Shown here one piece after another: positions 24,650 through 46,578 of a DNA stretch of 52,535 nt. Under the pieces are notes generated by a model. That model was not told where the DNA came from. It ran no database searches and was given only the letters and a program-made list of their open reading frames with translations. Origin of the DNA: a virus (taxonomy: Duplodnaviria > Caudoviricetes); the IMG/VR virus record IMGVR_UViG_3300044858_001628, positions 1-52,535 of that record; one strand, given 5' to 3'. Made by a program: the position numbers and the translations under genes. How positions within the stretch are numbered: the first letter of the stretch is position 1; each line of letters begins with the position of its first letter.

Positions 24650-24656
24650 AAGCGTA

Positions 24657-24716
24657 AGCATAGGGGTAACTATGTATGTTGTCAATAGGCAAAACTATCT
24701 ATTTGATAGGTATAGT
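24657..24716. promoter_or_regulatory. OR region: PR (minus, TTGACA-N17-TATGCT), PRM -10 TATAGT and two operators
   Basis: -35 at 24680-24685, -10 at 24657-24662; operators ATAGGGGTAACTAT 24660-24673 and ATAGGCAAAACTAT 24685-24698; PRM -10 at 24711-24716. Confidence 0.8.
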
Positions 24717-24722
24717 TCGCAC

Positions 24723-27104: not shown

Positions 27105-28642
27105 TGAACCGCACACAAGAAAAGTTACAACAAGGCTCTCAAGAGTGGCACGCATTTAGACTAACGCACTTTGGCGCAAGTGAGGCTGGTGCAATGATGG
27201 GATTGTCACCATACAAGACACGCGACCAACTTTTGACTGAAAAGAAAACTGGTTTAACTCCAGAGGTTGACGCTTTCACACAAAAGATTTTCGATAAAGG
27301 TCATGCGGTAGAGGCTTTAGCAAGACCAATTGTTGAAAAGATGATTGGTGAAGAGCTATCAGCCGTAACCTACTCTTTCGGCAAGCTGTCTGCTTCATGT
27401 GATGGTATCTCTTACATGGGCGATGTTGCATGGGAAAACAAACAATTTAACGCAGAGCTATTTGAGCAAGTTAAAAATGGCGAGTTGCCCGCAATCCATA
27501 TTTGGCAATGTCAGCAAGTATTGTACGTTACTGGTGCTGGAAAGCTGTTTTTCACTATATCAGATGGCACAGAAGAGCGCACAGCAGGCGTTTGGGTTGT
27601 GCCAGATAGAGAAGTAATTAGTAAGATTATTAACGGCTGGAATCAGTTTGAAATTGATTTGGAAAACCATGTTCCACCAGTGCAGGTTGAAAAAGTAGAG
27701 GCTGAAACAATCCAATCTCTACCAGTTCCTAGTGTTGTTGTACGTGGTGAAATCACAACAAGCAATCTTAATGAAATCACGCCATTGTTTGACAAGTATT
27801 TAGGTGGCATCAAAACAGAATTAAGCACAGACCAAGACTTTGCAGACGCAGAGGCCAATGCTAAAAATTGCCGTGAAACTGCAAAACGTATTCAATCGCT
27901 ACGCACTAACATTATCGCGCAAATGGTTGATGTTAATGCGGTTGATGGTGTGCTGGCAAATTACGAAGAGGCATTTAACAAGGTTGGCCTACGCTTAGAG
28001 AAAGCAGTTAAAGAGCAGAAAGAAATGCTTAAAACTTCTGCAATCACAAAAGCACAAGCCCAATTTCTTGGGTTTGTAAATGCTCTTAGCAAGGAATTAC
28101 TAATACAGTTGTTTGACAGGATAGCAACGCCTGATTTTGCAGGCGCAATCAAAGGTGTTAAGACCATTGAAAGTATGCAATCACGTATCAACGATGCTTT
28201 AGCTAACGGTAAAGCAGAGGCCACAGCGCTTGCTAACGATGTTAAAACAAAGCTTGCCTACATTAACGAATCAATCAAAGGCTATGAGCATTTATTCGCA
28301 GTACATGACTTGGTATTTAATGATATTGAGTTTATTAAGCTAAAAATTCAATCGGAAAAAGATGATGAAGATAAGCGCAAAGCAGAGCATGAATTAGCAA
28401 TTAAGGCTAAAGCGGAAGCGGAAATACGCTTAAAGATAGAGAGCGAGGCCGTTGCTTCGCCAAAAGAAGTTGTTGCAATGCCTTCACCTACAGCTTTGCG
28501 TGAGGCAGTAGTTTCACATCAAGACGAAATAGCAACATTCTTGAAATCTCGCAATTTAAGTGACGCGAAATATAACGAATACCGCGCTGTTTTAGTTGAG
28601 TTTGTAAAGCATCAATCTTTAAGAGAGAAGTTAGCCGCTTAA
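27104..28642 (+). CDS. YqaJ-like (lambda exonuclease family) nuclease with long helical C-terminus
   Basis: QGS.EWH..R...FGASEA, GH..E..AR, SAS.DG, WE.K, Q.QQ.L.V motifs. Confidence 0.9.
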   Translation: MNRTQEKLQQGSQEWHAFRLTHFGASEAGAMMGLSPYKTRDQLLTEKKTGLTPEVDAFTQKIFDKGHAVEALARPIVEKMIGEELSAVTYSFGKLSASCDGISYMGDVAWENKQFNAELFEQVKNGELPAIHIWQCQQVLYVTGAGKLFFTISDGTEERTAGVWVVPDREVISKIINGWNQFEIDLENHVPPVQVEKVEAETIQSLPVPSVVVRGEITTSNLNEITPLFDKYLGGIKTELSTDQDFADAEANAKNCRETAKRIQSLRTNIIAQMVDVNAVDGVLANYEEAFNKVGLRLEKAVKEQKEMLKTSAITKAQAQFLGFVNALSKELLIQLFDRIATPDFAGAIKGVKTIESMQSRINDALANGKAEATALANDVKTKLAYINESIKGYEHLFAVHDLVFNDIEFIKLKIQSEKDDEDKRKAEHELAIKAKAEAEIRLKIESEAVASPKEVVAMPSPTALREAVVSHQDEIATFLKSRNLSDAKYNEYRAVLVEFVKHQSLREKLAA

Positions 28643-29631: not shown

Positions 29632-30690
29632 TTACCATAATTTTGATGATAAATCTGAACCGCGAAGGTTTGAATATCTCAAAGCCATTTTTAAACTTTT
29701 CCAGCCAAGTATTTTAGCTATTTGTAAGTCTGTTAATGTTGTGCGTTCATAAAACCTGCTTGTTGCCTCATGGCGCAAGCAATGAAATGTGAAACCTTCA
29801 CATTTAGCATGGTCAAATATGCGTGAGAATGTCTGCGATAGCCTTGAGCTTATATCATTGCGATTACCTTTAAATGAAAATAAGCGCTCGGTATTGATTG
29901 ATTTTGCATAAACCTTGAGCTTGTCTAATATGGTGGAAGTCATAGGAACTTGCCTTTTATCACCATTTTTAGTTTTATCTAAAAAGATAGTGCGAGATTC
30001 AAAGTCTATCTGTGATTTTTCAAGTGTGTAGATTTCAGACAATCGCATACCTGTTTCAAGTGCAATATCAAACAGCGCTAATATCTCGTAAGGATTATCA
30101 AACTCAAATCCACGCTCTTTATTATCAACCTTGCCGCCTAAAATAATTCGCCTTACCTCTTTCTCTTCTGATTCAGTTAGTCGCCTATCACGCTCAACCT
30201 CTTCTTTATGACCACTGGCATAGCGCTTTGGTAGCTCTCTTAATGGATTACTTACCAATAAAGCGTCACCTCTACGCTTCACCCAATCCAAACAACGCGC
30301 CAGAGCGCCTACATGGTGACGTATAGTTGATGGCGACAGGTTGTTATGCTTCATATCAACAACATAATTGTCTGCAAACTCGTAATTCAATGATGCAATT
30401 TTCTTAACGCCAACACGCCTTCTAGCAATGCCTAATAGCTTATGGTCACTATCAGGAACATCAACGCCTAGCAGGTATTGGTCTATTGCGTCAGCAATTG
30501 TAAGAATTGCACCCTTTTTAGCCAAATATTCGGTAGGAACTTTTCCAACCTTGAGTAAAGATTCAAGCTTTGCAGTGTACTCGTCACCTTCTGCTTCATC
30601 GTCAAAGGTCAAGTAAACCCTACCGTTAGGTAGTGATTTGCTTGATACTGTGTAGTAATACTTACCGTTACGAACTCTTTTGTTTGCCAT
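29632..30690 (-). CDS. int: Tyrosine recombinase (integrase)
   Basis: TGMRLSE (R), KTKNG (K), FHCLRHEA (HxxR), LGW, RY catalytic set. Confidence 0.95.
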   Translation of the reverse strand: MANKRVRNGKYYYTVSSKSLPNGRVYLTFDDEAEGDEYTAKLESLLKVGKVPTEYLAKKGAILTIADAIDQYLLGVDVPDSDHKLLGIARRRVGVKKIASLNYEFADNYVVDMKHNNLSPSTIRHHVGALARCLDWVKRRGDALLVSNPLRELPKRYASGHKEEVERDRRLTESEEKEVRRIILGGKVDNKERGFEFDNPYEILALFDIALETGMRLSEIYTLEKSQIDFESRTIFLDKTKNGDKRQVPMTSTILDKLKVYAKSINTERLFSFKGNRNDISSRLSQTFSRIFDHAKCEGFTFHCLRHEATSRFYERTTLTDLQIAKILGWKSLKMALRYSNLRGSDLSSKLW

Positions 30691-31045: not shown

Positions 31046-34000
31046 TTAAACTGCTTTCCCTTCTTTGATTGAGGTTACATTGTCATTCAAGCGTTTCATT
31101 ATTTGAGTGATTCTTTCGTCAATAACTTTTACAGCCTCACGATTGTCACCACCAGCTTCTTTAATTGCACGTTGCTGTTTGCGTAAGTTTTGAACTTGGC
31201 GCAAGGCTAAGTCTGAAACTCTGGCTAATCTTGCCTCTGGGTGAGATTCCATGAATTTAGCAATATCACCACCTTCTTTAGCGATACCTTTCATTTCATT
31301 TTGATACTCATTCATAATGCGTACATTCGTGTAAAAAGCGTCACCTTGTGAAGCTTGCCCTGTTACATCACCATAAAAGCGACCTACCAGTGGAACTTTA
31401 TAAGTCGGCAACTCTTCACCAGTAAACAAACTATCTGCTGTTGTGCCTGCCTTGATAATCTCACGACCTACGCCACCAGTGAACTGTCCAGCTAAATACT
31501 CTAACTGGTCTGCTGTAGGGCTAATAGCACCTTGCTTGTAGTCATTACCGCCTGTCATGTAGTTTATCGCTTGTGCAATAGCCACGCTTAAATCCCATGC
31601 CTTGTCGCGTGAGCGAGTGAAGCCTGCTGTCGGGTTAAGTGAGTTAAAGTCCTCGCGTGCAATTGGTCTGCCAGTGAAGTCTTTATTTTCAGCAAGTGCC
31701 GCCAGTGGGTCAATAACAGTTGGCGTGATTGTTTGAATTGATAATCCAGCGTTACCTATTGGGTTTGTTACGTTCAGTATCATATCCATGATATGCACTA
31801 ATCGTTTTTGAGTATCTTCACCGCCAGATAAAGCCCATTCAGTCACAATTCGACCAAGTGAAGGAATCGCATTGAAACCTAATGGCATTGGCACTGTAAT
31901 GTAACTATCGCCTAGTGGAATAACTAAGCTACGGTCACGCACAAACTCTGGTGGCTCGTCATCACCATATCCAGCCGCAGAAAGTAACAGCGCTTGCATT
32001 GCACCTAACAGCAAGCCACCTTGCACGATACGCTTGCCCATTGCGCTTAGTTTAACCTTGCCGTTAGCATCTTTCTCTAACATCGTTTCACCGATACGCG
32101 CAGTGCCTTGAACAGAAGCGTTAAAGAAGGCATATAGTGAACCAATCTGTCTGCCCATTTCACCCTTACGGTTGAAGTTTACAGAGATATTTTTAGCCAT
32201 TGATGCCGCTTGTTGCTTGCTGTGTCCATTATCTAGTGCAACCTTATACACTGATAAGCGAACTGCGTTTTCAAGCGCTGTGTTGTAGTCAGAAAGCCAA
32301 TCAAAAATAGGCTTGATTGCTTTGTCGTACATCCACTGCTCTGGTTTTGCTAACAGTCCATTTGCACTGATTAACTTACCAATCTTGCTGTTTTGCCACC
32401 ACAATGGGTCTAGTGCATTTTGTAGTGATTCGCCACGCTCTTTCGCATTTGCGTACATATCACGGAATCCAGTTTGACCACCTTCGTTTTGGTAATCTTC
32501 AAACAGTTGTGACCACTGGCTATTACCAGCTACGCCATTTTTACGCTCACTGCGTAAGTCTTTATAAATTCCAAGTAATGCGCTAGGTGTATTTTTCAAT
32601 ACATCAGACTTCTTGTTGGCAATTGGCGTTGTGCTTAGGTTTAATAGTGCGCCTTGAACGTCACGCACGATATTGACTACACCAAAGATAGGGTTATATT
32701 GAGTGTTGATAGAAGCAAAGTAGCGTGTAAAGCTAGAAGCCGCGCCTAATAACTCGCCAATTTGGTCTTGGTCTAAGTTCTTAACACTTGCCGCCATACG
32801 CATGGAGCGTTCATCGTACTTATTAAATACAACCGCACGTTCTACGATGTCACCTTTTTCAGTTTTAAATCTGGCAACAACAACATTGTCAAGGTTTTTG
32901 TAGTTTGGGTCTGTTACTTCTTGCACGCTGTCTGGTTTTTTTACGGTATTAATGGTGTAGCCATTCTTCCCTTCAAACTGAATTAGCTTATTGGCTTCTG
33001 CGAGATTGGTAAACTCTTGAACCTTAGAACCGTGATACAAGACTTCATAAACAGTAGCGCCTTTTACCACCGTTTTAATTTTAGGTGGGCTATCAACTTT
33101 CCAAAACTCTTTATTAGGGTTTAGTTTAGCCAATCCAATAAGCGCTTTAGACACGCGATTTTTCTCACCACGAATCACATTCTTTTCAAACTGTTGCGCC
33201 ATGTTAGCGATAATATCAACCACTGCACGATTTGAACCTGTTGCGCGTTTGCTTGCATTACCTTTAACACTAAATCCTTGACCAGTGCCGTTGCCAAAAC
33301 CATTGTCCATATCTTCACGCATCAATGGAACGTAGTTTTTGTATGCGCCCTGCCATGCTTCAATAGTCTTTTCTGATTCTAGGCCATAATCAATAAGCGT
33401 TTGGCGTGATTTGCGATTGATAGCATCAATACGTTTAGCCAGCTCTGTGTAATTAGCTTTCTGCTCTGCTGTGAGGTTTGATAAGTAGTCGCGTGCATCT
33501 TGCGTGTCCATACCAGAGCCGCCATCAGGCATATCAGGATTAACTTTAGCAATTTGGATATTACGCTCTTCTGCATGACGCGCCCATAGATATTCTTCAA
33601 AGTCAGCCATTGCTACGCCACGCGCACGCATATCTTCAATGAGTGGGTCTAAGTCGTGTTTAATAAAGTCTTGAGTACGTTTAGCCGTTCTGCCGTGATA
33701 AAGCTCTTCTTGCAGGTAAGCATTGAATTGGTCTGCAATATCCGCGCCAGCTTTCTTGATTGAATCAGTAACACGCTTCAAGTCAATGTGCTTATCTTGT
33801 AATGCGTAAATCACACTATCAAGTTTGCTTGGCTCTGGATTGTTCCATGATGAATTGCTACGGCTAAAACGAATATCATTGTTATTAGCATCAAAGTTAC
33901 CGTTGTTACCTGTAGCTGATTTGATTTGTGTAGGTGAGAAAACAGCGTAAGATATTTCTGGCGTTTTACTCGCTGATGATGCGTAGTTCTTCTCTAATAA

Positions 34001-37000
34001 CTTAACACCATCATATCCTTGCGACTTTAAATAAGACACAAATCTTTCATCATCTAAAAATTGCCATAGATTTATTCTACTTGTATCAGCTATTTCTTCT
34101 TTTGAATAACCTGCTTTCTTTAAGTCACTTACTACAGATTTACTCTTTAGAGTTAAGTCATAAGGATTATTTATGCTCAAATACGTTGCATAAACGTAAT
34201 CATTCATTGATGACTTTCCACTATCATCTGCTTTGGCTCTTCCAAACTCTCTAGCTAGTTGCTTGTTTGGAGTAAAGAAAAAAGCTTGTGATGTAACTTC
34301 TTTTTCCGCACCTAAAAAACCTAATGACCTTTTACCAACTTTTGGCTCAAATGTATTAAATTTATCCTTCGTTTCATACCTAGCTTCATCCCTATTGTAT
34401 GTATATTTGAAGGCAGTACCATGATAAACAACCAAAGGCTTACCATCGGCATCAACTACTTTGCTGTCACCGAACCAAGATTTGAATTGAGGTGTTTCTG
34501 TTTGCGCTTGATTAGCGCGTGAGTAGAATATCTCGTTAAGTTGAGTATTTTCTAAAGATTGATATGCGAGCTTGCCAACGAGTTCCAGTAGGCGTTGCCG
34601 CTTCTCTCCGCTTTTTTCGCGTAAGAAGGTATGTGCGATAACTGCTCTTTTAAGCGTTGTGCTACCTGCGTGAGTGGCTCTTGCTTCCCGTGATTCTGCA
34701 AGAACTCTAAACTCTTTGTCGGTGTAAGGTTTTCCACTTGATAGCTCGATAAACTGTTGTTTATCAAAATCATAGACTAAATCATCCAGTTTAGCAACGC
34801 CTAAAGCATTTGGTGACTTGTAGGTAACTTCATATCCGTTACGTTTTTCTGTCACGTAAATACCATTGCGAATAGCTTTATAAGAAGCTTTTAACAATTC
34901 AGCGATGTTATTCTCTGTGTCACCTTTAATCCAGTTAATACCAAGCTCGCGCTCTTGGTCTTGATGTGGTGCAATATGGTCTGTTGTGCCAAATTTAAGC
35001 GCCATCGAAACCATGTTTTCAAGCCTACGAAGTTTTCCAGTTGATGTGATTCCATCCCTATCTCCTGCAAATACCTTACCGTTATTGTAAGCCCAATTCG
35101 CAACAGCAGAGTAAACGCCAGAGCCTCCGTAGCCTTCATCCCATGCGGCAACATTTATCTCTACATTTCCGTCAGGATAAACGCTGATTGTCCCTTCTTG
35201 ATTAAGAAGAGCTTTTCCTTTTGTATCTCTTGGGTAAATAGCATACTGCTCTTCAACACCATCTTTTGCGATTGCAACATCAACTCTAACAAGTTGAGGA
35301 ACTACGTCATCGAATACTTTTTGCATATCGGTAGCTGATGATTTCGTGTACTTGAACATATCATCATTGAGTGTAAGCTCTTTGAATAACTGCGCGTCAT
35401 TTACAGAATAGTCGCGTGATAATTTAACACCGCCACCACCGCCACCACCGCCACCATTAACAACGAACCTACGAGCAGGCAATAAGTAATTAACGATAAT
35501 GTCATTATCAGAAAACTCAAGATTTACACCGATTGAGCGTAAGAAGTTACGAATAGCCGCAATAGCGCGTTTAACAAAGCCTGCGCTTGGTGCTGTTTGA
35601 GCCATTTCAGCCAATACTTCTTCTGCAACAATACGTCTATCGCTAACTTTATTTAAGTCTAAGCCATACTGTTTAGCCTTTTTAGCCATATCGTTTTTAC
35701 GCAACATTGCTACTTGGTCTAATATCGCGCCTAACTCTTTACCATACAATCCACGCAATCCGTAGTGACCTAATGTTTCATGGAACACAACGCGAATAAC
35801 GTCTTTTGGCGAGTTCATTTCGCTGGCTAATATGTAAACCTTACCATCATCGTAAAAGCCTTCTGGATGACCTTTAGCGCCTTGCGATAACTGTCTTTGA
35901 TTCTCGTCACGCACAGCTTTACGAATTGCAGGGTCGTTCATATCGTCAACAACAATAATCTCTGGTGCATTTTTCCATCCAGAGCGTAATTTGTTTACAG
36001 CAATTTGTACTGAAACTTTAGGCAAGCCTTTGTTTTCAGATTTTGAACGGCTAAATGTTGGGGTGTCTGTACTTTTTTCTACGCTTGCAGAGCCAGATTT
36101 TTCACCAGAATAATAACGCTTTGCAATATCTCTCGCATAATCAACTGCGCTTTCAGTAGCAGAAAGATTTGTAAATCTATACACCAAGTCTATTAACGCT
36201 TTAACTTTTAATGGGTCTGAAATGCCATTGCTTTGTGCGTAAGATTCATTTCTTCTCTTTGACAAGTCGCCTATTAAAGCAACAAGCGCTTTAGATTTGA
36301 ATAATTTAGGATGAATTTTCGTATCAACAGAAAATTTAACCTCGCCAGAATATCTATCAATATAGATTAAAATTGCTTTTTTTGAATCTGTCATTACATT
36401 GCCATATCTAAGCTCTTCACCAAGCTCTTCTGATACAGCGCTGTTTATTTTTAACATACCATCAATTTGCGTAACTCTGTCTTTGTAAAATTCGTAATCG
36501 GTAGATTCGTATTTTTTATTATTAAAATACTTCATTAAGCTTAACAAGTATTCAGAAGCGGCATCTTTGCTTCTGAATGAAAATCCAGACTTAACGCCAG
36601 CATCAAGTTTGTACTTCTCTGGCATTAAAATTCCGCTTTCAATCATTGGATTTTCTGGCGTATGACCGTCAAGCGTAAATTTGATAATGTCGCCTTCTGG
36701 GTGGTGCGTTCTAAACCTTACCAAGTTTCCAGTGATGATGTAGCGATTTTCCTTGCCACCATTTACGCTACGCAATCTAAACATATCTTCTAGGTAGAAG
36801 TATGTGTTTGCCTGATTTGGAACTGATATTCCAGAGCCACTTTCTATTTTTGAAAGAGGTATTGAGATTCTACCGTTAGGCACATTGCGCTGAATGTGAA
36901 CAATAATGTTTGAAGGTGAAAATGGATTCCCTGCTTTTGAGGTTGATTTGCCAATAGAATATCCAACAACAACACCTTCCGATTCAATGTCATTCACGAT

Positions 37001-40000
37001 AACAGAATTATAGCCACCACCAATAGGCGCTCTATATTTAAGGGCGTTAATTGTTTGCTCACGCCTTGTAGCAAACCCATCCATAATTGTTTTAATTGAA
37101 GCAAGCCTGTCATCAATAGCCTTTTTCTCTGATTCAGTGGCCTTCTCGTCTAGGCGCTCTTCATTTAATGTGCTTTGTCTTAAAACCAACTGGTTATATG
37201 CCTCGTCATAACGCATTTTTAACGATTCAACTAAATCATCAACTACTTCACTAGAAGTTCTACCGCCTAACGCGCTGTCGATAGCAGTTTGCACTTTTTC
37301 TGGCGTAGGAATGTCACCAATTACATTGATTGCATACTTAGTTGCAAATACGCTTTCTGTAAATGGGTTTGATTCATCCATGCCCTCTTCAATCATAGTT
37401 GTTTCTAGTGCGCTTGCTTGGTAGTCGTACTCTTTCATTTCAAGAGTATTAGTGCCAGTAGCATTACGCATTTCAATTTCTTGATTAAAGCGCTCTTCGA
37501 CTGTATTGAAGAAGTCGTTTTGTTCGCTCACAGATAACAATGAAGCTCTGCCAGATGCAGTTAATGCAATGTCTGTACCCTCTGGCTCACTGCTTATATC
37601 AACTGACAAGAAGCCTGCAACATCATCATTTTCTGATAAGTATTCAGCAACAATCTTATCGCCATATATATTAAGGAAATCAACCGCATCAATTTCTGTA
37701 GAGCCTTTTCCTGATGACGTGTTAGAAAATAAAGACTTCATTTTCTTTTTAAGAACAGCAAGTATTCTGCGCTCTGCTGGTATTCCTGTCGCCAATACTG
37801 TAAATGTAGGCCATTCAACCTGACCAGTTCTATGAATACGACCTATAGTTTGCTTAAACACAGCAATATCAGGGTTTGGTTGTAAGAAAATCATGTGGCG
37901 TGGGCGTTGGTCTTTAAACTTCTCTGACGCATGAAGTGAAATGCCAGTAGCGCCAGATGAATTTAATATAACAGTATCAATAGAGCCGTTTGCGTAACCC
38001 CTGATAATATCAACATTGTCAGGGTCTTTTCTCTTAACAAGTGTTGGAACTTCTGTGCTGTAATCAACAGCTTTATCTCGCCCTGTAATCTCAGATATAT
38101 TTAATGGTCTTACATTAGCGCCTTTAGGTGGTGTTTTTGTTGCGTATTGCGTTCCATCATCATTTGTCACTATTGAGTATTGGCTCATTTTGAAGCGAAT
38201 CATATCAATAGGGGATGCTGGCAATGATGATTTGAAACTTTCAATCAACTCTTCGCCACGCTGAAATTCTCTAGCTATCTCGTATGGCAACATATTCATT
38301 GGAACAATAACGCGAACTGTGTCTGATTTGTTGCCAGTAGGTGACTTAAATGCCAATCGTCTAGCGCTTGTTAAACCGCGAGTTAATATGGTTTGCCAGC
38401 CAAAGTTTTTTAATTCATCGCCTACGTTGATTCCAGCAATAGAGGTGTAATCATCTAGCGCTGAACCCATTGTGTTCTGTAAGGCAAATACAGCCTTCTC
38501 ACCTCTGTTGATGGCTTCAATTGCATAATTAACTGCCGAATCAACTTTTGTTGAAAGCAATAATTGAGAAACATAGTTATGCACAACAGAAGTAAACAAA
38601 CCATGCGACATTGCCGTGTCTAACTTACCGTTCTTATCGTATGATTCATACCCTTTTGGCATAAGGGTTGCGAGAGTTTTTCTTCCATCTTCTGATTCAG
38701 CCCATGCCGCGAACTCTCTATCAGCCCTTACAATAGAACGAAGTACATTGGTTACTTCATCAACTAATCTTTCGTCACGCTCTGCATTTTTTTCATCAGT
38801 AATAAACCCAAACTTAACCCCCTCATAAGAGCGCTCACGTCTAATCATTGAGCCAGATTTAACCAACATTTCAGAAGCAATCTGTTGTAATACATCACCA
38901 CCGCCAGAGAACGCAGAAATTAACTCTTCGATAGAATCTGCCGCTTTCGCCAAATGAGTTCTCATGTAAACAGGCATATTTGTCGGGCGTTTAGCAAAAG
39001 TTGCTGATAGATAGGTAACTGCTGGTGGAGTAAAGTCATCAGGTGGCGCTACATCAACCCCATCAATATCAACGCCAAATAAGTTATTTCCTGTGATTAA
39101 GTTACGTATAAACTCGCCTGTCTGAGATTCGCCAGCCGCATTATGAGCTTCATCCATGATGATTACAGCTTTTTCAGAGCGAACTAAAGTTGCAACAGCA
39201 TCTCTTCTCATTGCAGAAAGTTTCGGGTTGTTAAATTGACTATATGTTGTGAATAGCGCTTGCGCCCCATCTGGCAACTCACCTGTTTTAATGATGTGAG
39301 CATAAAGCGCTTTTGCTGATTGTGGCGTTGATTTTAGAACAACGCGACCTTTTGAATCTTTAATCTCTTCTTTGCTGTTTGTAATGGCAATCTTAATATC
39401 GCCCTTACCAATATCCTGCAAATCTTCATACATTGCAGTGTAAAGGTCAGGTTTTATTGTCATAAATACTGGGATTTTCCCACTCTTCACCGCCCACGCC
39501 ATCAATCCAGCCGCAGTTCTTCCCTTGCCAACGCCAGTGTCATCACCAATAATGAAACCATTGCCGTTTTTATTTGCTGATATTGCTAGAGCCAATGCGT
39601 CAATCTGATACCCACCAAGCGCTTTATACATGGCTTCTTTTGAATCATAGCCAAGCTCTTCCATGACAAATTCATCCAAGTCGCCATTCTCTGCCTCAAC
39701 CAAATCAAGTGCAGAATAAAGAGCATCAGCCTGTTTTCGTGGAACATAAATACCACCGCTATCGCCATTGCTTCTGCCGCGATAAACAACTTGAGATTCG
39801 TTATCAACTGGGTCTGGAATGATTGGTTTTTTGCTAGAAGGTGTGTTTTCTTGCTCTTGCTTAATGTCGCTTACAAAGCGCATTGCGTAAGCTTTGATTC
39901 CTGCACCGTATCTTGCAAGAACAGCATTTGCAAAAGCCTTGATTTGCTCTTTTATGTCGCTGTACTTCTTACGCATTACTTCCATTATGCGTTTAAAGAA

Positions 40001-43000
40001 AGGTTTATATTCTTCGTAATTACTTAATTCTTCTTCATTACTGCTACGTGAAAACATTGTTTTATTTTCAGAAGCATCAGAGCTTTCTTGTTGAGTTGAT
40101 TTACCATCAACAACCTCGTCAAGCTCTGCAAAAATTGCATCAAGCTCTTTGTCGCCAGTTGATTTCTTATTTACAACAGGATTATTGCCAAATACCTTAC
40201 CTTTTGATTCTTTTTTCTCTTGGATTAGCTCTGGTAAAGTTCTTTTACCTTTTGATTTAGATTTTTTCTGTGCAACACTATCGAAAACCTCACCAAAGAT
40301 GTTCTCGATATCATTGTCGCTTAATTCAGAAAGTCCTCCAGCGTCAGTTGGGCTTGCGCCTGTACCGCTTGTTTTGCCACTTCCAGAGTTGCCGATTCCA
40401 CCCTGTCTGGGTCGCCCTGTCTTATCATTTCCCCTACGTCTGTTCTGTCCATCAGCATCATCGCTAGGTGTTCCGCGCTCTGTGGTTTTTCCATTCGTAT
40501 CGCTTCCGCTTCCTCTAGGGTCATTCTCGCTATTGCTGTCGCTTCCTTCAGCCCCTCCATTTCTATCAGAGTTTCCAGCTTGTTCTTGATTGCCATTCGG
40601 TAATTGTCCGCTTCCAGAATTTGTACTGCTAAAGCCTCTGGATGCCTTGCTGGAATCCACCAAGATTCGTTCTGAATTTTTGTGAGCCTCAACATATCTA
40701 CTCCATAATTGTTCATAATTAAAAACGCGCTCTACTTCATTGTTCATATCATACGCTGATTCTGTTTGATTTCTACCAGCGATAACAAGAACTCTAAGAG
40801 GCCATGCCGCGCCTTGTCGAGCATACATACTTCCATCTACCTCAAAGTGGTCTGCCACGTTGTAGTTAGCGTACAACCAATTCAAGAACACTTTGTCATT
40901 TGAGTTTACAGCACCAACTTTCTTATTAGCGCCAAGTATGATTACAGCGCGACCTTTATCTGCGAGTGTGCGTAGTGATTTAGCGGCAATAAGATGGTCA
41001 ATCTTACCCATCATGTAGTTTCTGCCATCCCATGAAGGAACGCCAACAGGTGATGCCAAGCTTCCGAATGGTGGGTTTGTTAATATAACATCTGCGGCTT
41101 GGTCGTTGATGGTATCAATTTGCTTAACAGCATCACCATCAATAACTTTACCAAACTCCATGAGCTTCATATTTAATGCTCTATGTTTTTCAAGTTCAAT
41201 CGTGGTGATGTTTTTTGGATTTGCGTTAATTAAAAGTAATCCATTCCCACCTGACGGGTCTATTACTTTTGAGTTGGCATTAACTCTTCCTAACTGTCCA
41301 GCAATAAATGATATTGGCAATGGTGTAGAGTAAGCCTGATTTGATGCACTTGTTGATGTTCTAACATCTAAGTTTGGCTGTTTGTTATACAGAGATAATA
41401 ATTCATCAAAGATGGCCTTTTCATCAGAGCCAGCAAGACGCATATCAACAATCTTTTGTCCTGCAAATTTAGCAAGTGCCGCCTCAAAATCCTCTTGCCC
41501 TTGTTTAAGTTTTAGTAAATCAACGTCTGCTGGTTTGATTCTGTAAGCTTTAGCCACATAATCTTTAATAGCCCTATTATCTTCTGGAAACCAACCTTGT
41601 TTAAGATGAAAAAACATTGATTCAGCCATTGAGCCGTTTTTAAGCTCTGGAAACTTAACAATGTTCATTTCCTCCATGATTTTGTCTAAGTTCTGCACAA
41701 AATCAATGATTACCTTGTTTGCATCTGCAACTTGCTTTGTTTGTGGGTCTAGTATGCGCTCAGTGCCTTTTATTTTATCAGCGTCAGCCTGTGCTATTTC
41801 TTTAGTGCTAAACCAATTGATAGTTCCTGCAAGTGAATCTCTGCTGTAAAGAAACTTCGTGCCAACATTGTGCTGGTCTATAACACCAAACCCTAAACCT
41901 TCAACCTCGACAATTCTTGGCTCTACTTTGTATGTTTTGAATTTAAGTGTCTTACCATCAATTAGCGCAAAGAAGTTCTCATAAACGCTGGCAATATAAG
42001 CACGCTCTTCACCTGTTGGGTATGGAGTGCCTGCGTAACCATTCTTTTTAGTCATGTAACCATCAGCGCGTGATTTACCGACCAAGTAAGGGCTACCGCC
42101 TTTTGTTTTATCGAAAAGGAATGATTCAAAACCACGCGCAAGCATTTCAACTTTAGTACCCCAATAAGCTTTGCTTTTACCTCTATCTAAGTTATCGGCT
42201 TCTTTTTTGAATTGCGTCTGCTCTTTTACATACTCATGTACTGGCGTTGCATAACTTCCTTGCTGGTTTATTTTTGCAAATACAGCATCCTTTGGCGGTG
42301 TGCTTCTATTTTTTTCATTATTAGCATCACGCAATACACCTCTCAAGTAAGCATCAAGTCTGTCGCTATGTATTCTGCTTGAAAGTGTATTTGAAAGTAA
42401 GTTAATTACCCCCCTGTATTTTGTCGCGTTAATGCTATCTTCTGCACCAGTTTCTATGTTGTGGTCTAAGCCATGAAACCACTCATGCCCAACCGTACCA
42501 TTGCCATTTGTTTTTGTAAGATTGATTACATTTGATGTTGGCTCAAAGTGCGCGGCCGCACGAGTGTTTTTACTTCCGCGAGAGCCAATCGCCAATCCAA
42601 GTTTTCCAGCAACAGAAACGATGTTTGCATCAATTCCAGTGATAGAAGATAAGTCGTAAAGTGAATCATAAGCTAAGTTTAAATTCTGCTGACGTTCAAT
42701 CTGATTTACCCACTCACCGAACTCAAGGCCAGAGAATCCAAAAGCACTTGTAAACGCATCTGTATCAATATCTTTTCCACCACGATGGTCTTTCATTCCA
42801 ACGCGAGTGATGTTATCTAGGCGAGGTGGAACGTCAGGGTCTTTTTTAACCAATCTGTTAGTCTGGTCGGTTGAATTTTCATCTTTACCAAATGTGTTTG
42901 CATAGCTATTAACAAGATTGCTTATGCCAGTTGCAGGCCTCCAGCTTGAAGTGTCAAAAATAGATGCGGCTGGCTTACCCTCTTCTGTTAGAGTTAAATT

Positions 43001-46000
43001 GCCACCCTCTTCTTTAAGGTATCGTTGAACAAAGGCGCTTCTAGCCGATTCAACAGTTGAAGCAGAATGGAATGTTGCCTGCAAATCATTCAAGAACTTC
43101 ACATAATTGCCAGCAATAACATTGGCTTTTTCTGACATTTCAACATCAGCAAGAGAACTTGTTACTATTGACTTGTCTGTGGCCTTGTAACTGTACGAAT
43201 AGTACGCTTTTAACTGACTTGCAATATATTCAAGAGGCATCCTTATATGCTCAAAAATTGCTTCTTTAAACATCATTGTGCCAAAAGTCTGCTCTTCATT
43301 AGAGAATTGGTCTAAGTAGTTCTTTTTATGTAAAGCATCAAGCCACTTTTCAGCTTCTTTTAATAGTTTCTTTTCATCACTTCCAACATCAGGCTTTTGT
43401 GGCGCTTGTCCTTTAATCTTTCCACCAAGCTCATTACCTGCATCATCAACGCCAGAAGCCTTGCTTATCATTGCAGATACAACAACAACCTCTGATTCGG
43501 CAGTTTCTTGAAGCTTATCTGTAACTCGGAATTTAAGGCGTTTTAGATTTTTAAGCACACCATCAGTAACGTCAGAATTGTTAAGCGGTAGTGATATTCT
43601 GATTAAGTAGTCATCAGGGAATACAGTTGGCATAGCAGATGGTTGTAATGATTCAACCTCTAGCACGCCTTTGTATAATTCAGATGTAAGCCAAGCAATA
43701 TCACCAGATTCAACGGCTGATAACACAGTAGTTTCCTGCTCTACTGGCTCGGCTTTCTTTTCCTTAACTGGTTTTTCAGCAGGTTTTTCAACTGGCTTTT
43801 CTTCGCTATCAACAACCTCAACCTTTGGCTTTTCAACTTTAGGATTAACTTCTTTTGGCGCTTTCTCTTTCTTAGGCTCTTTTGGATTATCAGAGATTGT
43901 GCCACCTGTTGCGCCACCTGTTGTGCCAACATCATTAGGCTCTTCTTTTACATTTCCTGCTTCTGTAGGTTTTTGTTTAGAAGTAATGATGCTGTTTATT
44001 TTCTCAACAAGCTTATCTTTATCAAGCCACTCTTCTACAAACTCACCTTCATTTGCTACGCCTGCGTCAATCAAACGCTTCGCATAAGTACGAGCTTTAA
44101 TTAAATGATTTTCCCATCCATCAGGTGCAACAACATTAACATTTTCAGTTTCATTAGCATCAACCTGTACGTCTTTTGGTGTTTCATCGACACTTATTTC
44201 AGTTGTGTCGCCAGCATCGACATTCTCAACGCTAGGCTGATAGTCTTTGTTGTAGGTAATGATTTGTTTATTAAACTGACCAGAAGCCTTAACTGCCGCC
44301 TTAATTTCATCAAGCGTAGCTGTTTTCTTTACGGTAACAGGGTCGCCTTCATAATCAAGCAACTCGTCACCGTTATGCAATACATTAAAGTTATCACCAT
44401 TAGGCTTTAAGCTAATTACTTGGTTTGCGCCCTTGCTACCAATATGCGCGATTTGAATGTTTGCGTTTTCTGGCGTAGTAGCTTCTTCAACAACTGGATT
44501 ATCTTGAGTAGTCAGGGATTCCTTGACAGGTGCAAATTCTTGAGCAGGCGATACAGTAGATTTCAACACTCCATCTACTTTTGCAGGAATAGTAGTATCA
44601 CCAATCTGGTCAATTAAAAATGTTCTATGGTGTCCATCCTGCAAGTGAAAAGTTCCATCTGGTAAGGTATTCACTTCAATTGGATTTGATTTATTAAATT
44701 CACGAAGTTTATTTTGAGCTTCTTTATCAGCTTTAAATAAATCAACCATTTCACGCATGGTAGCGCCATCTTTAATATCCATTCCTGCGCCATGCTTTAG
44801 CACGCCAGCAACCTGTTCCTGCGTAACCCCCTGTGTTCCAATAGCGCCATTCTTACGTTTAACATTTGATATATTAAAGCCAGTAGTGCTATCAGGTAAG
44901 GTAGTCGTTCCAGCATCAACTGTTGCAGGTTTAAGCCCACGCAACGTCATTTCAGCCTCAATACGACCTTTAATTGTAGTGTCATCAGTAAGCTTTAACA
45001 GGCGACCTAATAAGTCATCAGACGCGCTTTCAAAAGGTCTAGCCTCTACTGCATCACCCCCTGTGGTGTCATTTCCAGTAGCCACATTCGTTCCGATGCT
45101 GGATGGAGGTGTGGCGGTAGCGTCACCCATTCCTGTTCCATTTGGCTGTATAGGTAAATCTGCCACGCTTCCTTGAGCGTTATTACCTGTAGATTCACTG
45201 GTGTTTGTAGCCATTGTGGTAGAGGCATCATTGTTACGGTTAGCATTGCTTACACCTTCATTAAATCTACTATCAAAGGAATTATTTACGCCAAGAGTTG
45301 TTCTAAAATCATTGAGTGCAGTTTTAGTATCAGCCGCACGACCTTGACTATCAACTGTTATTGTTGGCGCTGGTAACGCTAAAGTAGGTTGTTGTTTTGG
45401 AGTTGTACCTGTACGCGCTTGAAATGCCGCTAACTCTTCTGCCGTAAATCGCTTTTCCGCTTCGGCTCTTGTCATCGTACTACCATCAGGGAATACAACT
45501 AAATCATTGTTTTCAAATGTTGGTGCAGGTAGCGCTAATACTTGGTCTGACGCGCCACCTAATACCGCAGTTTGAGCCGCACCTGTAATAGCACCGCCAC
45601 TTCCAGTTTGAGCAAGTGTAGTAGCTAATTGTTTGCGAGAGTTTATTACATACTCTGCCGCGCCAAGACCACCGCCTAGAGGTGCGGCCGCTAAACCTTC
45701 AAGAGTAGCGTTACCAGCTACACCTTGCCATGTATCTACATCAAAACCATCACGCGCTTGAGCTACGTTTGTAGCAACTCGCTCTTGACCGCCTTGAATT
45801 GCCTCTGGGATTGCCTCTTTACTTGCATCTGATAGCGTTTTCTTGAGTAGGTCTTTTGCTATGAACTGACCAGCTTCCTGACCAATTTCTTTAGCGCCTA
45901 GTCGTGCCGCAATACTTTCAACCCCTGTACCGCCAGCTAAAGCACCAAGTCCAGCACCTAAAGCAATCTGGTCTGCATTTTTACCTGTGTAAGATTGTGC

Positions 46001-46546
46001 TTCTGTCGCTAAAGCGTCAGCCTCTTGTTCTGTTTTTCCAGCGTCAATGTGAGCCTTTTTAACAGCATCGTAAACTTCACCCTTGATAGCACCAGCACCC
46101 ATAGCAGTGCCTACGCCAGTTGAAATAGCTGATTTAGTTGCCGCGCCAGCACCTAACTTCTGTGCCGCAAGCGCTGGAACGATTGTACCTGCGCCTTGAG
46201 CTATCGTATCTAGTGGTGATTGTGAAAAGTTTTTAAGTGCCGCGCCTACTTCTGCAAACCCACCTTTTTGCTCTGCGTTAGCCATACGTGCAGAGTTAAT
46301 AATGTCTTGGTCTTTTGCGCCTTGAGAGCGAAGGCTATCTAAACCTTCAATGCCTGATTGAATTACGTTTGATACTGGATTGTTTGCAGTAACAGCATCA
46401 CTTAGCATCTTACCGCCAAGTAGCGTGCCTTTAAGTAGATTTACCCCTAAGTCACCTACACCTCTTGCTATACCTGTTGTTGGATTTAAGTTAGGGGTAG
46501 AATTAAAAGCATCAACTTCTGCTTGGGATAATTTTATTTTTGCCAT
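31046..46546 (-). CDS. Giant polyvalent (DarB-like) protein, ~5,166 aa
   Basis: DGHHR (ParB-like, ~44.6 kb); GHEWFH and EMLARGFE (LPD1/zincin, ~42.0-42.8 kb); DPSGGNG and NPPF (N6-MTase, ~40.7-41.4 kb); GDDTGVGKG, DEAH, SAT, GRIHRTGQ (SF2 helicase, ~37.5-39.8 kb); HETLGH and EEVLAE (zincin, ~35.5-36.0 kb); VVYHGT...QIKSATGN (ART, ~33.9-34.5 kb); LPD38-like C-terminus. Confidence 0.92.
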   Translation of the reverse strand: MAKIKLSQAEVDAFNSTPNLNPTTGIARGVGDLGVNLLKGTLLGGKMLSDAVTANNPVSNVIQSGIEGLDSLRSQGAKDQDIINSARMANAEQKGGFAEVGAALKNFSQSPLDTIAQGAGTIVPALAAQKLGAGAATKSAISTGVGTAMGAGAIKGEVYDAVKKAHIDAGKTEQEADALATEAQSYTGKNADQIALGAGLGALAGGTGVESIAARLGAKEIGQEAGQFIAKDLLKKTLSDASKEAIPEAIQGGQERVATNVAQARDGFDVDTWQGVAGNATLEGLAAAPLGGGLGAAEYVINSRKQLATTLAQTGSGGAITGAAQTAVLGGASDQVLALPAPTFENNDLVVFPDGSTMTRAEAEKRFTAEELAAFQARTGTTPKQQPTLALPAPTITVDSQGRAADTKTALNDFRTTLGVNNSFDSRFNEGVSNANRNNDASTTMATNTSESTGNNAQGSVADLPIQPNGTGMGDATATPPSSIGTNVATGNDTTGGDAVEARPFESASDDLLGRLLKLTDDTTIKGRIEAEMTLRGLKPATVDAGTTTLPDSTTGFNISNVKRKNGAIGTQGVTQEQVAGVLKHGAGMDIKDGATMREMVDLFKADKEAQNKLREFNKSNPIEVNTLPDGTFHLQDGHHRTFLIDQIGDTTIPAKVDGVLKSTVSPAQEFAPVKESLTTQDNPVVEEATTPENANIQIAHIGSKGANQVISLKPNGDNFNVLHNGDELLDYEGDPVTVKKTATLDEIKAAVKASGQFNKQIITYNKDYQPSVENVDAGDTTEISVDETPKDVQVDANETENVNVVAPDGWENHLIKARTYAKRLIDAGVANEGEFVEEWLDKDKLVEKINSIITSKQKPTEAGNVKEEPNDVGTTGGATGGTISDNPKEPKKEKAPKEVNPKVEKPKVEVVDSEEKPVEKPAEKPVKEKKAEPVEQETTVLSAVESGDIAWLTSELYKGVLEVESLQPSAMPTVFPDDYLIRISLPLNNSDVTDGVLKNLKRLKFRVTDKLQETAESEVVVVSAMISKASGVDDAGNELGGKIKGQAPQKPDVGSDEKKLLKEAEKWLDALHKKNYLDQFSNEEQTFGTMMFKEAIFEHIRMPLEYIASQLKAYYSYSYKATDKSIVTSSLADVEMSEKANVIAGNYVKFLNDLQATFHSASTVESARSAFVQRYLKEEGGNLTLTEEGKPAASIFDTSSWRPATGISNLVNSYANTFGKDENSTDQTNRLVKKDPDVPPRLDNITRVGMKDHRGGKDIDTDAFTSAFGFSGLEFGEWVNQIERQQNLNLAYDSLYDLSSITGIDANIVSVAGKLGLAIGSRGSKNTRAAAHFEPTSNVINLTKTNGNGTVGHEWFHGLDHNIETGAEDSINATKYRGVINLLSNTLSSRIHSDRLDAYLRGVLRDANNEKNRSTPPKDAVFAKINQQGSYATPVHEYVKEQTQFKKEADNLDRGKSKAYWGTKVEMLARGFESFLFDKTKGGSPYLVGKSRADGYMTKKNGYAGTPYPTGEERAYIASVYENFFALIDGKTLKFKTYKVEPRIVEVEGLGFGVIDQHNVGTKFLYSRDSLAGTINWFSTKEIAQADADKIKGTERILDPQTKQVADANKVIIDFVQNLDKIMEEMNIVKFPELKNGSMAESMFFHLKQGWFPEDNRAIKDYVAKAYRIKPADVDLLKLKQGQEDFEAALAKFAGQKIVDMRLAGSDEKAIFDELLSLYNKQPNLDVRTSTSASNQAYSTPLPISFIAGQLGRVNANSKVIDPSGGNGLLLINANPKNITTIELEKHRALNMKLMEFGKVIDGDAVKQIDTINDQAADVILTNPPFGSLASPVGVPSWDGRNYMMGKIDHLIAAKSLRTLADKGRAVIILGANKKVGAVNSNDKVFLNWLYANYNVADHFEVDGSMYARQGAAWPLRVLVIAGRNQTESAYDMNNEVERVFNYEQLWSRYVEAHKNSERILVDSSKASRGFSSTNSGSGQLPNGNQEQAGNSDRNGGAEGSDSNSENDPRGSGSDTNGKTTERGTPSDDADGQNRRRGNDKTGRPRQGGIGNSGSGKTSGTGASPTDAGGLSELSDNDIENIFGEVFDSVAQKKSKSKGKRTLPELIQEKKESKGKVFGNNPVVNKKSTGDKELDAIFAELDEVVDGKSTQQESSDASENKTMFSRSSNEEELSNYEEYKPFFKRIMEVMRKKYSDIKEQIKAFANAVLARYGAGIKAYAMRFVSDIKQEQENTPSSKKPIIPDPVDNESQVVYRGRSNGDSGGIYVPRKQADALYSALDLVEAENGDLDEFVMEELGYDSKEAMYKALGGYQIDALALAISANKNGNGFIIGDDTGVGKGRTAAGLMAWAVKSGKIPVFMTIKPDLYTAMYEDLQDIGKGDIKIAITNSKEEIKDSKGRVVLKSTPQSAKALYAHIIKTGELPDGAQALFTTYSQFNNPKLSAMRRDAVATLVRSEKAVIIMDEAHNAAGESQTGEFIRNLITGNNLFGVDIDGVDVAPPDDFTPPAVTYLSATFAKRPTNMPVYMRTHLAKAADSIEELISAFSGGGDVLQQIASEMLVKSGSMIRRERSYEGVKFGFITDEKNAERDERLVDEVTNVLRSIVRADREFAAWAESEDGRKTLATLMPKGYESYDKNGKLDTAMSHGLFTSVVHNYVSQLLLSTKVDSAVNYAIEAINRGEKAVFALQNTMGSALDDYTSIAGINVGDELKNFGWQTILTRGLTSARRLAFKSPTGNKSDTVRVIVPMNMLPYEIAREFQRGEELIESFKSSLPASPIDMIRFKMSQYSIVTNDDGTQYATKTPPKGANVRPLNISEITGRDKAVDYSTEVPTLVKRKDPDNVDIIRGYANGSIDTVILNSSGATGISLHASEKFKDQRPRHMIFLQPNPDIAVFKQTIGRIHRTGQVEWPTFTVLATGIPAERRILAVLKKKMKSLFSNTSSGKGSTEIDAVDFLNIYGDKIVAEYLSENDDVAGFLSVDISSEPEGTDIALTASGRASLLSVSEQNDFFNTVEERFNQEIEMRNATGTNTLEMKEYDYQASALETTMIEEGMDESNPFTESVFATKYAINVIGDIPTPEKVQTAIDSALGGRTSSEVVDDLVESLKMRYDEAYNQLVLRQSTLNEERLDEKATESEKKAIDDRLASIKTIMDGFATRREQTINALKYRAPIGGGYNSVIVNDIESEGVVVGYSIGKSTSKAGNPFSPSNIIVHIQRNVPNGRISIPLSKIESGSGISVPNQANTYFYLEDMFRLRSVNGGKENRYIITGNLVRFRTHHPEGDIIKFTLDGHTPENPMIESGILMPEKYKLDAGVKSGFSFRSKDAASEYLLSLMKYFNNKKYESTDYEFYKDRVTQIDGMLKINSAVSEELGEELRYGNVMTDSKKAILIYIDRYSGEVKFSVDTKIHPKLFKSKALVALIGDLSKRRNESYAQSNGISDPLKVKALIDLVYRFTNLSATESAVDYARDIAKRYYSGEKSGSASVEKSTDTPTFSRSKSENKGLPKVSVQIAVNKLRSGWKNAPEIIVVDDMNDPAIRKAVRDENQRQLSQGAKGHPEGFYDDGKVYILASEMNSPKDVIRVVFHETLGHYGLRGLYGKELGAILDQVAMLRKNDMAKKAKQYGLDLNKVSDRRIVAEEVLAEMAQTAPSAGFVKRAIAAIRNFLRSIGVNLEFSDNDIIVNYLLPARRFVVNGGGGGGGGGVKLSRDYSVNDAQLFKELTLNDDMFKYTKSSATDMQKVFDDVVPQLVRVDVAIAKDGVEEQYAIYPRDTKGKALLNQEGTISVYPDGNVEINVAAWDEGYGGSGVYSAVANWAYNNGKVFAGDRDGITSTGKLRRLENMVSMALKFGTTDHIAPHQDQERELGINWIKGDTENNIAELLKASYKAIRNGIYVTEKRNGYEVTYKSPNALGVAKLDDLVYDFDKQQFIELSSGKPYTDKEFRVLAESREARATHAGSTTLKRAVIAHTFLREKSGEKRQRLLELVGKLAYQSLENTQLNEIFYSRANQAQTETPQFKSWFGDSKVVDADGKPLVVYHGTAFKYTYNRDEARYETKDKFNTFEPKVGKRSLGFLGAEKEVTSQAFFFTPNKQLAREFGRAKADDSGKSSMNDYVYATYLSINNPYDLTLKSKSVVSDLKKAGYSKEEIADTSRINLWQFLDDERFVSYLKSQGYDGVKLLEKNYASSASKTPEISYAVFSPTQIKSATGNNGNFDANNNDIRFSRSNSSWNNPEPSKLDSVIYALQDKHIDLKRVTDSIKKAGADIADQFNAYLQEELYHGRTAKRTQDFIKHDLDPLIEDMRARGVAMADFEEYLWARHAEERNIQIAKVNPDMPDGGSGMDTQDARDYLSNLTAEQKANYTELAKRIDAINRKSRQTLIDYGLESEKTIEAWQGAYKNYVPLMREDMDNGFGNGTGQGFSVKGNASKRATGSNRAVVDIIANMAQQFEKNVIRGEKNRVSKALIGLAKLNPNKEFWKVDSPPKIKTVVKGATVYEVLYHGSKVQEFTNLAEANKLIQFEGKNGYTINTVKKPDSVQEVTDPNYKNLDNVVVARFKTEKGDIVERAVVFNKYDERSMRMAASVKNLDQDQIGELLGAASSFTRYFASINTQYNPIFGVVNIVRDVQGALLNLSTTPIANKKSDVLKNTPSALLGIYKDLRSERKNGVAGNSQWSQLFEDYQNEGGQTGFRDMYANAKERGESLQNALDPLWWQNSKIGKLISANGLLAKPEQWMYDKAIKPIFDWLSDYNTALENAVRLSVYKVALDNGHSKQQAASMAKNISVNFNRKGEMGRQIGSLYAFFNASVQGTARIGETMLEKDANGKVKLSAMGKRIVQGGLLLGAMQALLLSAAGYGDDEPPEFVRDRSLVIPLGDSYITVPMPLGFNAIPSLGRIVTEWALSGGEDTQKRLVHIMDMILNVTNPIGNAGLSIQTITPTVIDPLAALAENKDFTGRPIAREDFNSLNPTAGFTRSRDKAWDLSVAIAQAINYMTGGNDYKQGAISPTADQLEYLAGQFTGGVGREIIKAGTTADSLFTGEELPTYKVPLVGRFYGDVTGQASQGDAFYTNVRIMNEYQNEMKGIAKEGGDIAKFMESHPEARLARVSDLALRQVQNLRKQQRAIKEAGGDNREAVKVIDERITQIMKRLNDNVTSIKEGKAV
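40321..40695 (-). CDS. Candidate nested +1-frame gene (124 aa) in the methyltransferase-helicase linker
   Basis: GGAG-N5-ATG; helical-looking product; host frame here is low-complexity G/S/N/D/R. Confidence 0.6.
   Translation of the reverse strand: MLRLTKIQNESWWIPARHPEALAVQILEADNYRMAIKNKLETLIEMEGLKEATAIARMTLEEAEAIRMEKPQSAEHLAMMLMDRTDVGEMIRQGDPDRVESATLEVAKQAVQAQAQLTLEDFLN
45046..45246 (-). CDS. Candidate nested +1-frame gene (66 aa) in the N-terminal linker of the giant gene
   Basis: AAGGTG-N6-ATG; W/P/L-rich product; host frame here is low-complexity T/N/G/S/D. Confidence 0.6.
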   Translation of the reverse strand: MLTVTMMPLPQWLQTPVNLQVITLKEAWQIYLYSQMEQEWVTLPPHLHPASERMWLLEMTPQGVMQ

Positions 46547-46578
46547 TTGCACAATTCCAAAGGTTTAGACGTTTCATA

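Follow-up and report, generated by a model that had tools for sequence, protein, structure and literature searches.

The window analysed here is the whole of a complete virus record of IMG/VR (IMGVR_UViG_3300044858_001628; 52,535 bp). Its largest gene (31046..46552, minus strand) encodes a giant polyvalent protein of 5168 amino acids (aa), in which a methyltransferase part is joined by a hydrophilic linker to an SNF2-type helicase part. Inside this linker, on the same strand and in the +1 frame, lies an open reading frame (ORF) of 124 codons (40321..40695, minus). From the conservation of this ORF among relatives, we conclude that it is very probably a real protein-coding gene with an independent start, contained wholly within the giant gene. 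A first-pass annotation of the window had proposed that the linker is dual-coding and had named beforehand three points on which the proposal could fail, namely the starts and ORFs of relatives, the selection acting on the frame and the fold of the product; the proposal withstood all three.

Start signal and selection on the nested frame

The nested ORF runs from an ATG at 40695-40693 to a TAA at 40323-40321, and its position relative to the start of the giant gene, (46552-40695) mod 3 = 1, places it in the +1 frame. Its product has a calculated mass of 14.1 kDa and an isoelectric point (pI) of 4.8 (4.78). The ATG is preceded by a Shine-Dalgarno (SD) sequence, GGAG (40701..40704, minus), and a 5-nt spacer, TAGAT; in the main frame the SD is covered by the codons TGG-AGT (W-S). 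An in-frame ATG further upstream (40714..40716, minus) would give a product of 131 aa, but is probably not used as the start, because it lacks an SD and the closest relative has ACG in its place. In the main frame, the nested region (40319..40696, minus) reads as a spacer of 126 residues leading from the methyltransferase to the helicase, with 24 G, 21 S, 12 N, 10 R and 10 D. The ORF, its GGAG-TAGAT-ATG start and its product were found exactly as the first-pass annotation had quoted them, and the residue counts agree with its description of the main frame as a G/S/N/D/R string.

That the +1 frame is open is by itself insufficient as evidence, and it is the comparative data that decide. The nested frame is open for 136 codons from stop to stop, the longest +1 gap in the giant gene (284 +1 stops, mean gap 17 codons, second-longest gap 94). 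This is unsurprising, because a +1 stop requires a T at main-frame position 2, that is, a hydrophobic residue, and these are scarce in the linker (T at position 2 in 8% of linker codons versus 25% across the gene). Conditional on the main-frame amino acids and the codon usage of the gene, the +1 frame would be open with a probability of 0.16; the linker is the most permissive stretch of the giant gene in this respect, the best window elsewhere having P = 0.007. The first-pass annotation had argued that such a hydrophilic string is what a real gene looks like when read out of frame: its conclusion stands, but the argument from openness alone is weak. The same figure favours a rival explanation, in which the ORF is a by-product of a hydrophilic, T-poor linker and its conservation comes from an RNA or DNA element or from codon bias. 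The corresponding probability of openness in a Bacteroides phage described below (0.04) speaks for this explanation as well, as does a 146-aa antisense ORF that is open over the same bases and shows how permissive their composition is.

Comparison with the closest relative separates the two frames. This relative, found on one IMG/VR contig (L001), has a host protein that is 76% identical at the amino-acid level and a 125-aa +1 ORF in the same place. Substitutions between the two sequences at main-frame positions 1/2/3 number 41/26/129 and 65/41/163 in the flanks and 43/24/29 in the linker. By the Nei-Gojobori method (NG86), the ratio of nonsynonymous to synonymous substitution rates (dN/dS) in the main frame is 0.10 and 0.16 in the flanks (dS 1.06 and 0.89) and 1.04 in the linker (dS 0.30). 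Read in the +1 frame, the linker has a dN/dS of 0.285 with a dS of 0.79, and a dN/dS of 0.22 when the alignment is guided by the +1 protein. Amino-acid identity over the linker is 66% in the +1 frame and 57% in the main frame.

A permutation test, in which the 96 substitutions between the window and L001 were moved at random to sites of the same base while the main frame was kept open, gave a similar picture. The +1 proteins share 82 of 124 residues, versus 63.9 +/- 3.5 after permutation, a value of 82 being reached in 0 of 5000 permutations, and a +1 stop was gained in 89% of the permuted sequences. Main-frame identity (71/125) is no better than random (66.7 +/- 3.5, P = 0.14). When substitutions were held on their codon positions, the observed +1 identity again exceeded every permutation (71.4 +/- 2.8), and the main frame too proved somewhat constrained (P = 0.002).

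More distant relatives were found by two main-frame motifs about 1 kb upstream (DKIME and SMAESMF), and were thus not selected on the +1 frame; they comprise 2 metagenome loci, 22 IMG/VR loci and 1 locus from a metagenome-assembled genome. A hidden Markov model (HMM) of the +1 product, run against all ORFs of 30 loci, matched in 27, every time in the +1 frame of the giant ORF; this count includes the window itself (L002), a partial locus (L003, E 0.03) and contigs that were represented more than once. Matches in relatives whose sequence covers the linker were full-length (E 1e-16 to 1e-22, and 2e-39 for L030), and the loci without a match are one that ends before the linker (L029) and two of other lineages (L006 and L007). 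De-duplication left 22 distinct sequences, window included. The nested ATG is preceded by GGAG in all 22, with a spacer of 5 nt in 20 of them; in L004 and L030 the start, GGAGAG or GGAGAA followed by 5 nt, lies 14 codons further upstream. A complete nested ORF of 124-142 aa is present in 21 of the 22, the other one (L022) being truncated by the end of its contig. The SD and ATG are kept even though the main-frame residues that overlie them vary (LWSRYV versus LESRDD or LESRND).

The pattern of diversity within a single clade delimits the constraint. The clade holds 15 sequences that are 66-94% identical to each other at the nucleotide level and about 42% identical to the window at the amino-acid level. 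Diversity at main-frame positions 1/2/3 is.150/.073/.429 upstream of the nested ORF,.277/.178/.122 over it and.254/.190/.464 downstream; in the +1 reading, the values over the ORF follow the ordinary coding order, with position 2 < 1 < 3. In steps of 10 codons, third-position diversity in the main frame is 0.41 at -61..-31, 0.16 at -31..-1 and 0.00 at -1..+29, stays at 0.07-0.21 through the ORF and is 0.41 again at +389..+419, the nested stop being at +375. The drop thus begins at the nested SD and ends at the nested stop. In a 7.8-kb scan of 12 relatives with 20-codon windows, the sole run in which position 3 varies less than position 1 is 3540-3960, which covers the nested ORF (3568-3946); the one other flagged window is isolated, noisy and gappy, and lies at the variable 5' end. 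Finally, 7 of 9 pairs of relatives have a main-frame dN/dS of 1.05-2.1 and a +1-frame dN/dS of 0.22-0.44. The checks that the first-pass annotation had called for, on losses of starts or gains of stops in relatives, on homologues in the linkers of other polyvalent genes, and on frame-specific dN/dS, thus all came out in favour of the +1 frame, as did the conservation of synonymous sites.

The main frame is nevertheless actively kept open. When the nested protein was resampled with synonymous codons, none of 20,000 trials for the window left the main frame free of stops (mean 10.8 stops), and neither did any of 5000 trials for each of four relatives; under random synonymous codons one would therefore expect about 11 stops where none is found. 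T occupies 11 of the 124 nested third positions, whereas across the giant gene it makes up 36% of third-position bases. The nested gene avoids T there because the main frame must stay open and hydrophilic, and the main frame consequently reads as RNN codons (G, S, N, D, R, T). These comparisons show that selection falls mainly on the +1 reading and requires of the main frame only that it remain open and hydrophilic; the main frame would be translated through, with an amino-acid sequence that is essentially free.

The product family and its predicted fold

A profile search of 1.84 billion representative sequences with the nested product returned 42 with E <= 1e-3, 23 of them with E <= 1e-10 and 2 with E <= 1e-30. 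The representatives of this family (family 1) are mostly 119-126 aa long and match end to end. The library members that we looked up are mostly single sequences from short contigs: among ten clusters, 8 are singletons and 2 have two members, the names, where given, are 'hypothetical protein', and the longest contig measures 534-8871 bp in nine, the remaining cluster, P0015, occurring on 18 contigs of which the longest has 144,583 bp. An alignment of 41 sequences (24-72% identity) has W13, P15, A35 and K39 invariant and W12, A23, V24, Y32, L43, P96 and Q114 nearly so. With this alignment, AlphaFold2 (AF2) predicts a fold made of an N-terminal beta-hairpin (residues 5-13) with an invariant W-W-x-P motif, followed by seven helices, at a predicted local distance difference test score (pLDDT) of 96.0 and a predicted template modelling score of 0.88; the product alone thus has the confident predicted fold that the first-pass annotation had suggested looking for. 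All 41 members are acidic, with a median pI of 4.44 (range 4.05-5.08) and a median net charge of -11.

Taken together, these observations make the by-product explanation scarcely credible. A permissive composition or a nucleotide element would not account for +1 codon periodicity in the diversity, for a constraint that sets in at the SD and ceases at the stop, or for a +1 protein that none of 5000 random placements of the substitutions preserves as well. Nor would it account for residues that are invariant across 24-72% identity, or for an alignment from which a fold is predicted with a pLDDT of 96, and the antisense ORF has its third positions at the sites that vary least.

Family 1 was detected in 1 of 401 Pseudomonadota genomes sampled, the one that holds L030, and a scan of IMG/VR with an 8-sequence family alignment returned 11 contigs, all already known. 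A tblastn search of GenBank phages with the nested protein gave noise only (E of at least 4), and a search of the ESM Atlas gave a best score of 0.80 and a recognition value of 1851, below the mark, and no lead.

The main frame just downstream of the nested gene carries two motifs that recur together with the family. Motif A (GLSELSDNDIENIF; 40295..40336, minus; alignment A6) starts under the last nested codons, and motif B (KELDAIFAELDEVV; 40109..40150, minus), a second conserved acidic amphipathic motif, follows a basic K/P-rich stretch. In the database proteins P0015 and P0036, the nested-family domain stands in frame before sequence that resembles motifs A and B (LSDxDLDDIF and LLDELDxAL types), and in P0013, P0017 and P0027 it stands in frame after such sequence. 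Because these proteins hold the domain in frame with main-frame motifs of the window, other genomic arrangements of the domain, or rearranged contigs, must exist. As a link between the small protein and the giant one, the fusions appear weak. P0015 found no match among phages, plasmids or IMG/VR, and a search for longer proteins (386-2000 aa) with the domain in frame came back empty, which is weak evidence. A complex prediction for the nested protein and the following 95-aa main-frame segment (A6) stayed below the mark in both runs, which had no controls, and counts neither way.

The fusions also bear on the possibility that the +1 frame is reached by a programmed +1 ribosomal frameshift, whose product would be a truncated, N-terminal piece of the polyvalent protein with the 124-aa domain at its end. 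P0017 and P0013 are indeed longer ORFs that have the domain as their C-terminal part, and an SD-like GGAG upstream of the shift site stimulates +1 shifting in prfB. However, in the window and in L001 there are +1 stops 13 codons before the ATG, and in the clade at 42% identity only 9 codons are open ahead of the HMM match, which begins at residue 10 of the ORF as measured from stop to stop; since the stops lie 9-13 codons before the ATG, the window for a shift would be tiny. Moreover, all 22 sequences retain the ATG despite changes in the main-frame residues that overlap it (Y-V, D-D, N-D), and we saw neither a slippery nor a hungry-codon site that is conserved between clades, one having AGA-TAT and another CGC-GAT. 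Judging from these features, a frameshift route is unlikely, and we give it very little credence beside a gene with its own start.

A second nested family in Bacteroides phages

No close relatives were found among GenBank phages by DNA search, and tblastn with 900 aa of the giant protein returned 3 records, with identities of about 30%. A homologue of the host gene, at about 32% identity, is present in Bacteroides phage BS-TP4 (PQ571277.1) and has a nested +1 ORF of 119 aa in its methyltransferase-helicase linker (L006:2321-2677). This linker is rich in G/S/T/R/E, and the probability of an open +1 frame given the main frame is 0.04. The GenBank record annotates the giant coding sequence alone over this stretch and the nested ORF is missing; gene callers normally suppress nested same-strand ORFs.

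The ORF of BS-TP4 belongs to a second family (family 2), for which we collected 31 IMG/VR relatives (loci L043-L073), or 26 distinct sequences with BS-TP4. The +1 ORF is intact in 26 of 26, with lengths of 103-144 aa, and conserves M-[EA]-Q-K-[YF]-Y, HPG.LTE.DI..NL.RM and a terminal EWD. Main-frame stops occur in two loci, only upstream of nt 979 and far from the ORF. Of the six 20-codon windows over the ORF, five have a main-frame third-position diversity that falls from 0.40-0.55 to 0.19-0.33, and one, which is gappy, remains at 0.47; in every window, position 1 varies most. Six of 8 pairs have a main-frame dN/dS of 0.83-2.11 and a +1-frame dN/dS of 0.14-0.32, and the two deepest pairs are saturated. 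The 19 family-2 proteins examined are again all acidic (median pI 4.42, median net charge -14). Homology between families 1 and 2 was not detected, either with the family-1 HMM (0.9 bits on the BS-TP4 ORF) or with hhalign (A4 versus A7; probability 1.6%).

The nested arrangement is not universal in this class of genes. In Acinetobacter phage MD-2021a (L007, CAKLQH020000019.1, nt ~2190-2760), whose homologue was found by tblastn and carries the annotation 'N-6 DNA Methylase', there is no nested ORF and the +1 frame of the linker is full of stops. Its linker is acidic and D/E/N/L-rich, with hydrophobic residues.

Possible roles and origin of the arrangement

The host ORF has the features by which polyvalent proteins are recognised, many unrelated enzymatic and LPD domains in one giant phage or plasmid polypeptide. 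Pfam finds LPD1 at aa 1455-1531 (E 7e-12), AAA_34 (E 4e-20) with ResIII at aa 2315-2586, and Helicase_C_4 at aa 2818-2965 (E 4e-16). Upstream of the nested ORF, at about aa 1826-1829, an NPPF methyltransferase motif is present, which we take to be motif IV. Polyvalent or DarB-like proteins (Iyer et al., 2017; PMC5512222) likewise combine LPD1, methyltransferase and SNF2-type helicase domains in one polypeptide.

We propose that both proteins would be made from the same mRNA. Some ribosomes would read the main frame straight through, making the disordered, purine-rich G/S/N/D/R spacer between the methyltransferase part and the SNF2-type helicase part, and others would start at GGAG-N5-ATG and make the 124-aa acidic protein. 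The small protein could quite possibly work with the polyvalent protein, as a chaperone for its assembly or packaging or as a regulator of the DarB-like methyltransferase-helicase module, a role that we put forward tentatively. A role tied to the giant protein is favoured because the gene sits at one and the same junction in all 22 DNA contexts and because some relatives are fused in frame.

A lesser possibility is that the gene is real and independently started but that its product acts on the host, as an acidic anti-defence effector such as a DNA-mimic-type inhibitor of nucleases or restriction enzymes, lodged in an anti-restriction (DarB-like) gene only for co-expression. All members of families 1 and 2 examined (41 and 19) are acidic, and the host gene has a DarB-type methyltransferase-plus-helicase pair; polyvalent proteins are described as weaponry in conflicts (PMC5512222). 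With the DNA-mimic anti-restriction proteins Ocr and ArdA the nested product shares small size, strong acidity and an anti-restriction context, but no similarity in sequence or fold was detected, and the likeness is in charge only.

Several observations weigh against a nested gene that serves the polyvalent protein. To the permissive composition of the linker (P = 0.16) must be added that uniform acidity suits a free-standing effector of the DNA-mimic type as well as a chaperone. No significant sequence or structure match to the nested product was found in Pfam, PHROGs, PDB or BFVD: Pfam has no match for the window product and two marginal single-member hits among the 41 (E 0.005 and 0.01), the best PHROG match has E 0.19, no PDB sequence match falls below E 0.1 and no structural match of the predicted fold has an E below 1. 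With a 3-sequence alignment, AF2 gives an unconfident model (pLDDT 51.1). The two deepest family-1 pairs lack the asymmetry in selection, with main-frame versus +1-frame dN/dS of 0.51 versus 0.82 for L023 and L008, and of 1.11 versus 0.49 for the window and L008, where dS is saturated in the flanks. The in-frame fusions are known only as database proteins without DNA context, and one of them, P0027, looks rearranged, the nested ORF coming after the downstream segment of the main frame, which is a permuted order. Internal promoter-like sites upstream of the ORF number 4 versus 1.8 +/- 1.4 in shuffled sequences, a weak excess; the matches, themselves weak, include 40820-40791 and 40775-40748 (minus). 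Because these sites are weak, nested initiation would face competition from ribosomes that are already translating the main frame.

Nested +1 genes are already known in phages, and this phage has one of its own. In the Rz/Rz1 pairs of tailed phages, the embedded gene has its own start and both products form one lysis complex. The first-pass annotation had noted the same +1 arrangement in this genome, and we indeed find, inside a gene for a 159-aa protein with an N-terminal membrane segment (18079..18558, minus), a 57-aa +1 ORF with an LAGC lipobox (18165..18338, minus); these we take to be Rz and Rz1. The Rz/Rz1 pair thus likewise has a small gene wholly inside a larger one on the same strand. 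Unlike an Rz gene of about 150 aa, however, the host gene here encodes 5168 aa, with the nested gene occupying a spacer between domains. Over the overlap, dN/dS in the host frame is about 1, and the nested product is predicted to be a soluble, acidic, helical protein rather than a lipoprotein.

The nested ORF also resembles the overprinted genes of viruses, in which one DNA encodes two proteins under asymmetric constraint. It lies in a different frame inside a same-strand gene, is under purifying selection and has its own conserved start. In the usual case of overprinting, disorder tends to be found in the younger frame, the one that overprints. Here, by contrast, the embedded frame is selected and predicted to be well folded, and it is the long host frame that is disordered and unconstrained, so that the giant ORF may have grown over a pre-existing small gene. 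Detection of overprinted genes rests on lost synonymous variability in the host frame (PMC8227390, PMC3494269 and PMC11044054).

A broader reading, which we offer as speculative and rather improbable, combines these elements. The linker would be the out-of-frame shadow of an old small gene, giant ORFs would have arisen when such a resident gene was read through in its -1 frame and its two neighbours were thereby fused, the small protein would be an obligatory partner and the two families would be structural homologues. The partner would hold the giant protein inactive or unfolded for packaging, or act with it against restriction. If this were true, the nested genes would be an unannotated, widespread component of DarB-like modules in phages of proteobacterial type and of Bacteroides.

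Polyvalent and DarB-like proteins have so far been treated as single giant polypeptides with passive linkers. We found no report in the literature of a gene nested in the linker of a polyvalent protein; in the main text of Iyer et al. (2017; PMC5512222), the words 'overlap' and 'frameshift' occur 0 times and the lone 'reading frame' passage concerns neighbouring, not nested, small ORFs. What appears to be new is therefore not nesting as such but a conserved family, folded by prediction, in a polyvalent linker. Its product is an unannotated component to include when anti-restriction modules are dissected, and the second family is present in an isolated, culturable phage, BS-TP4. An unconstrained host frame over a selected embedded frame also bears on the origin of overlapping genes and on the growth of giant ORFs, and the low-complexity 'linkers' of giant phage proteins merit frame-aware re-examination.

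The source of the window is a temperate tailed phage, with genes for a large terminase (TerL), a portal protein, an integrase, RecE/RecT and a CI-like repressor. Beside the 3' end of the giant gene lie the CI-like repressor (24639..25421, plus), the RecT/RecE pair (26241..28642, plus) and the integrase (29632..30690, minus). The Rz-like gene is adjoined by an amidase/endolysin gene (18718..19266) and by a gene for a small membrane protein (18521..18721).

Two further features of the linker region were observed. In the 15-sequence clade, third-position diversity is already lowered to 0.20-0.31 (versus about 0.5) at 60-150 nt upstream of the nested ATG, corresponding by homology to about 40755-40845 (minus) of the window, before it returns to 0.41 at -61..-31. 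An internal promoter or some other conserved element at the nucleotide level could be the cause, as could biased codon use in a highly conserved part of the methyltransferase. The antisense ORF that is open across the nested region encodes 146 aa in the window (40149..40589, plus) and 179 aa in L001 (4020..4559, minus), and it looks like a by-product of composition, since its third positions coincide with position 2 of the nested codons.

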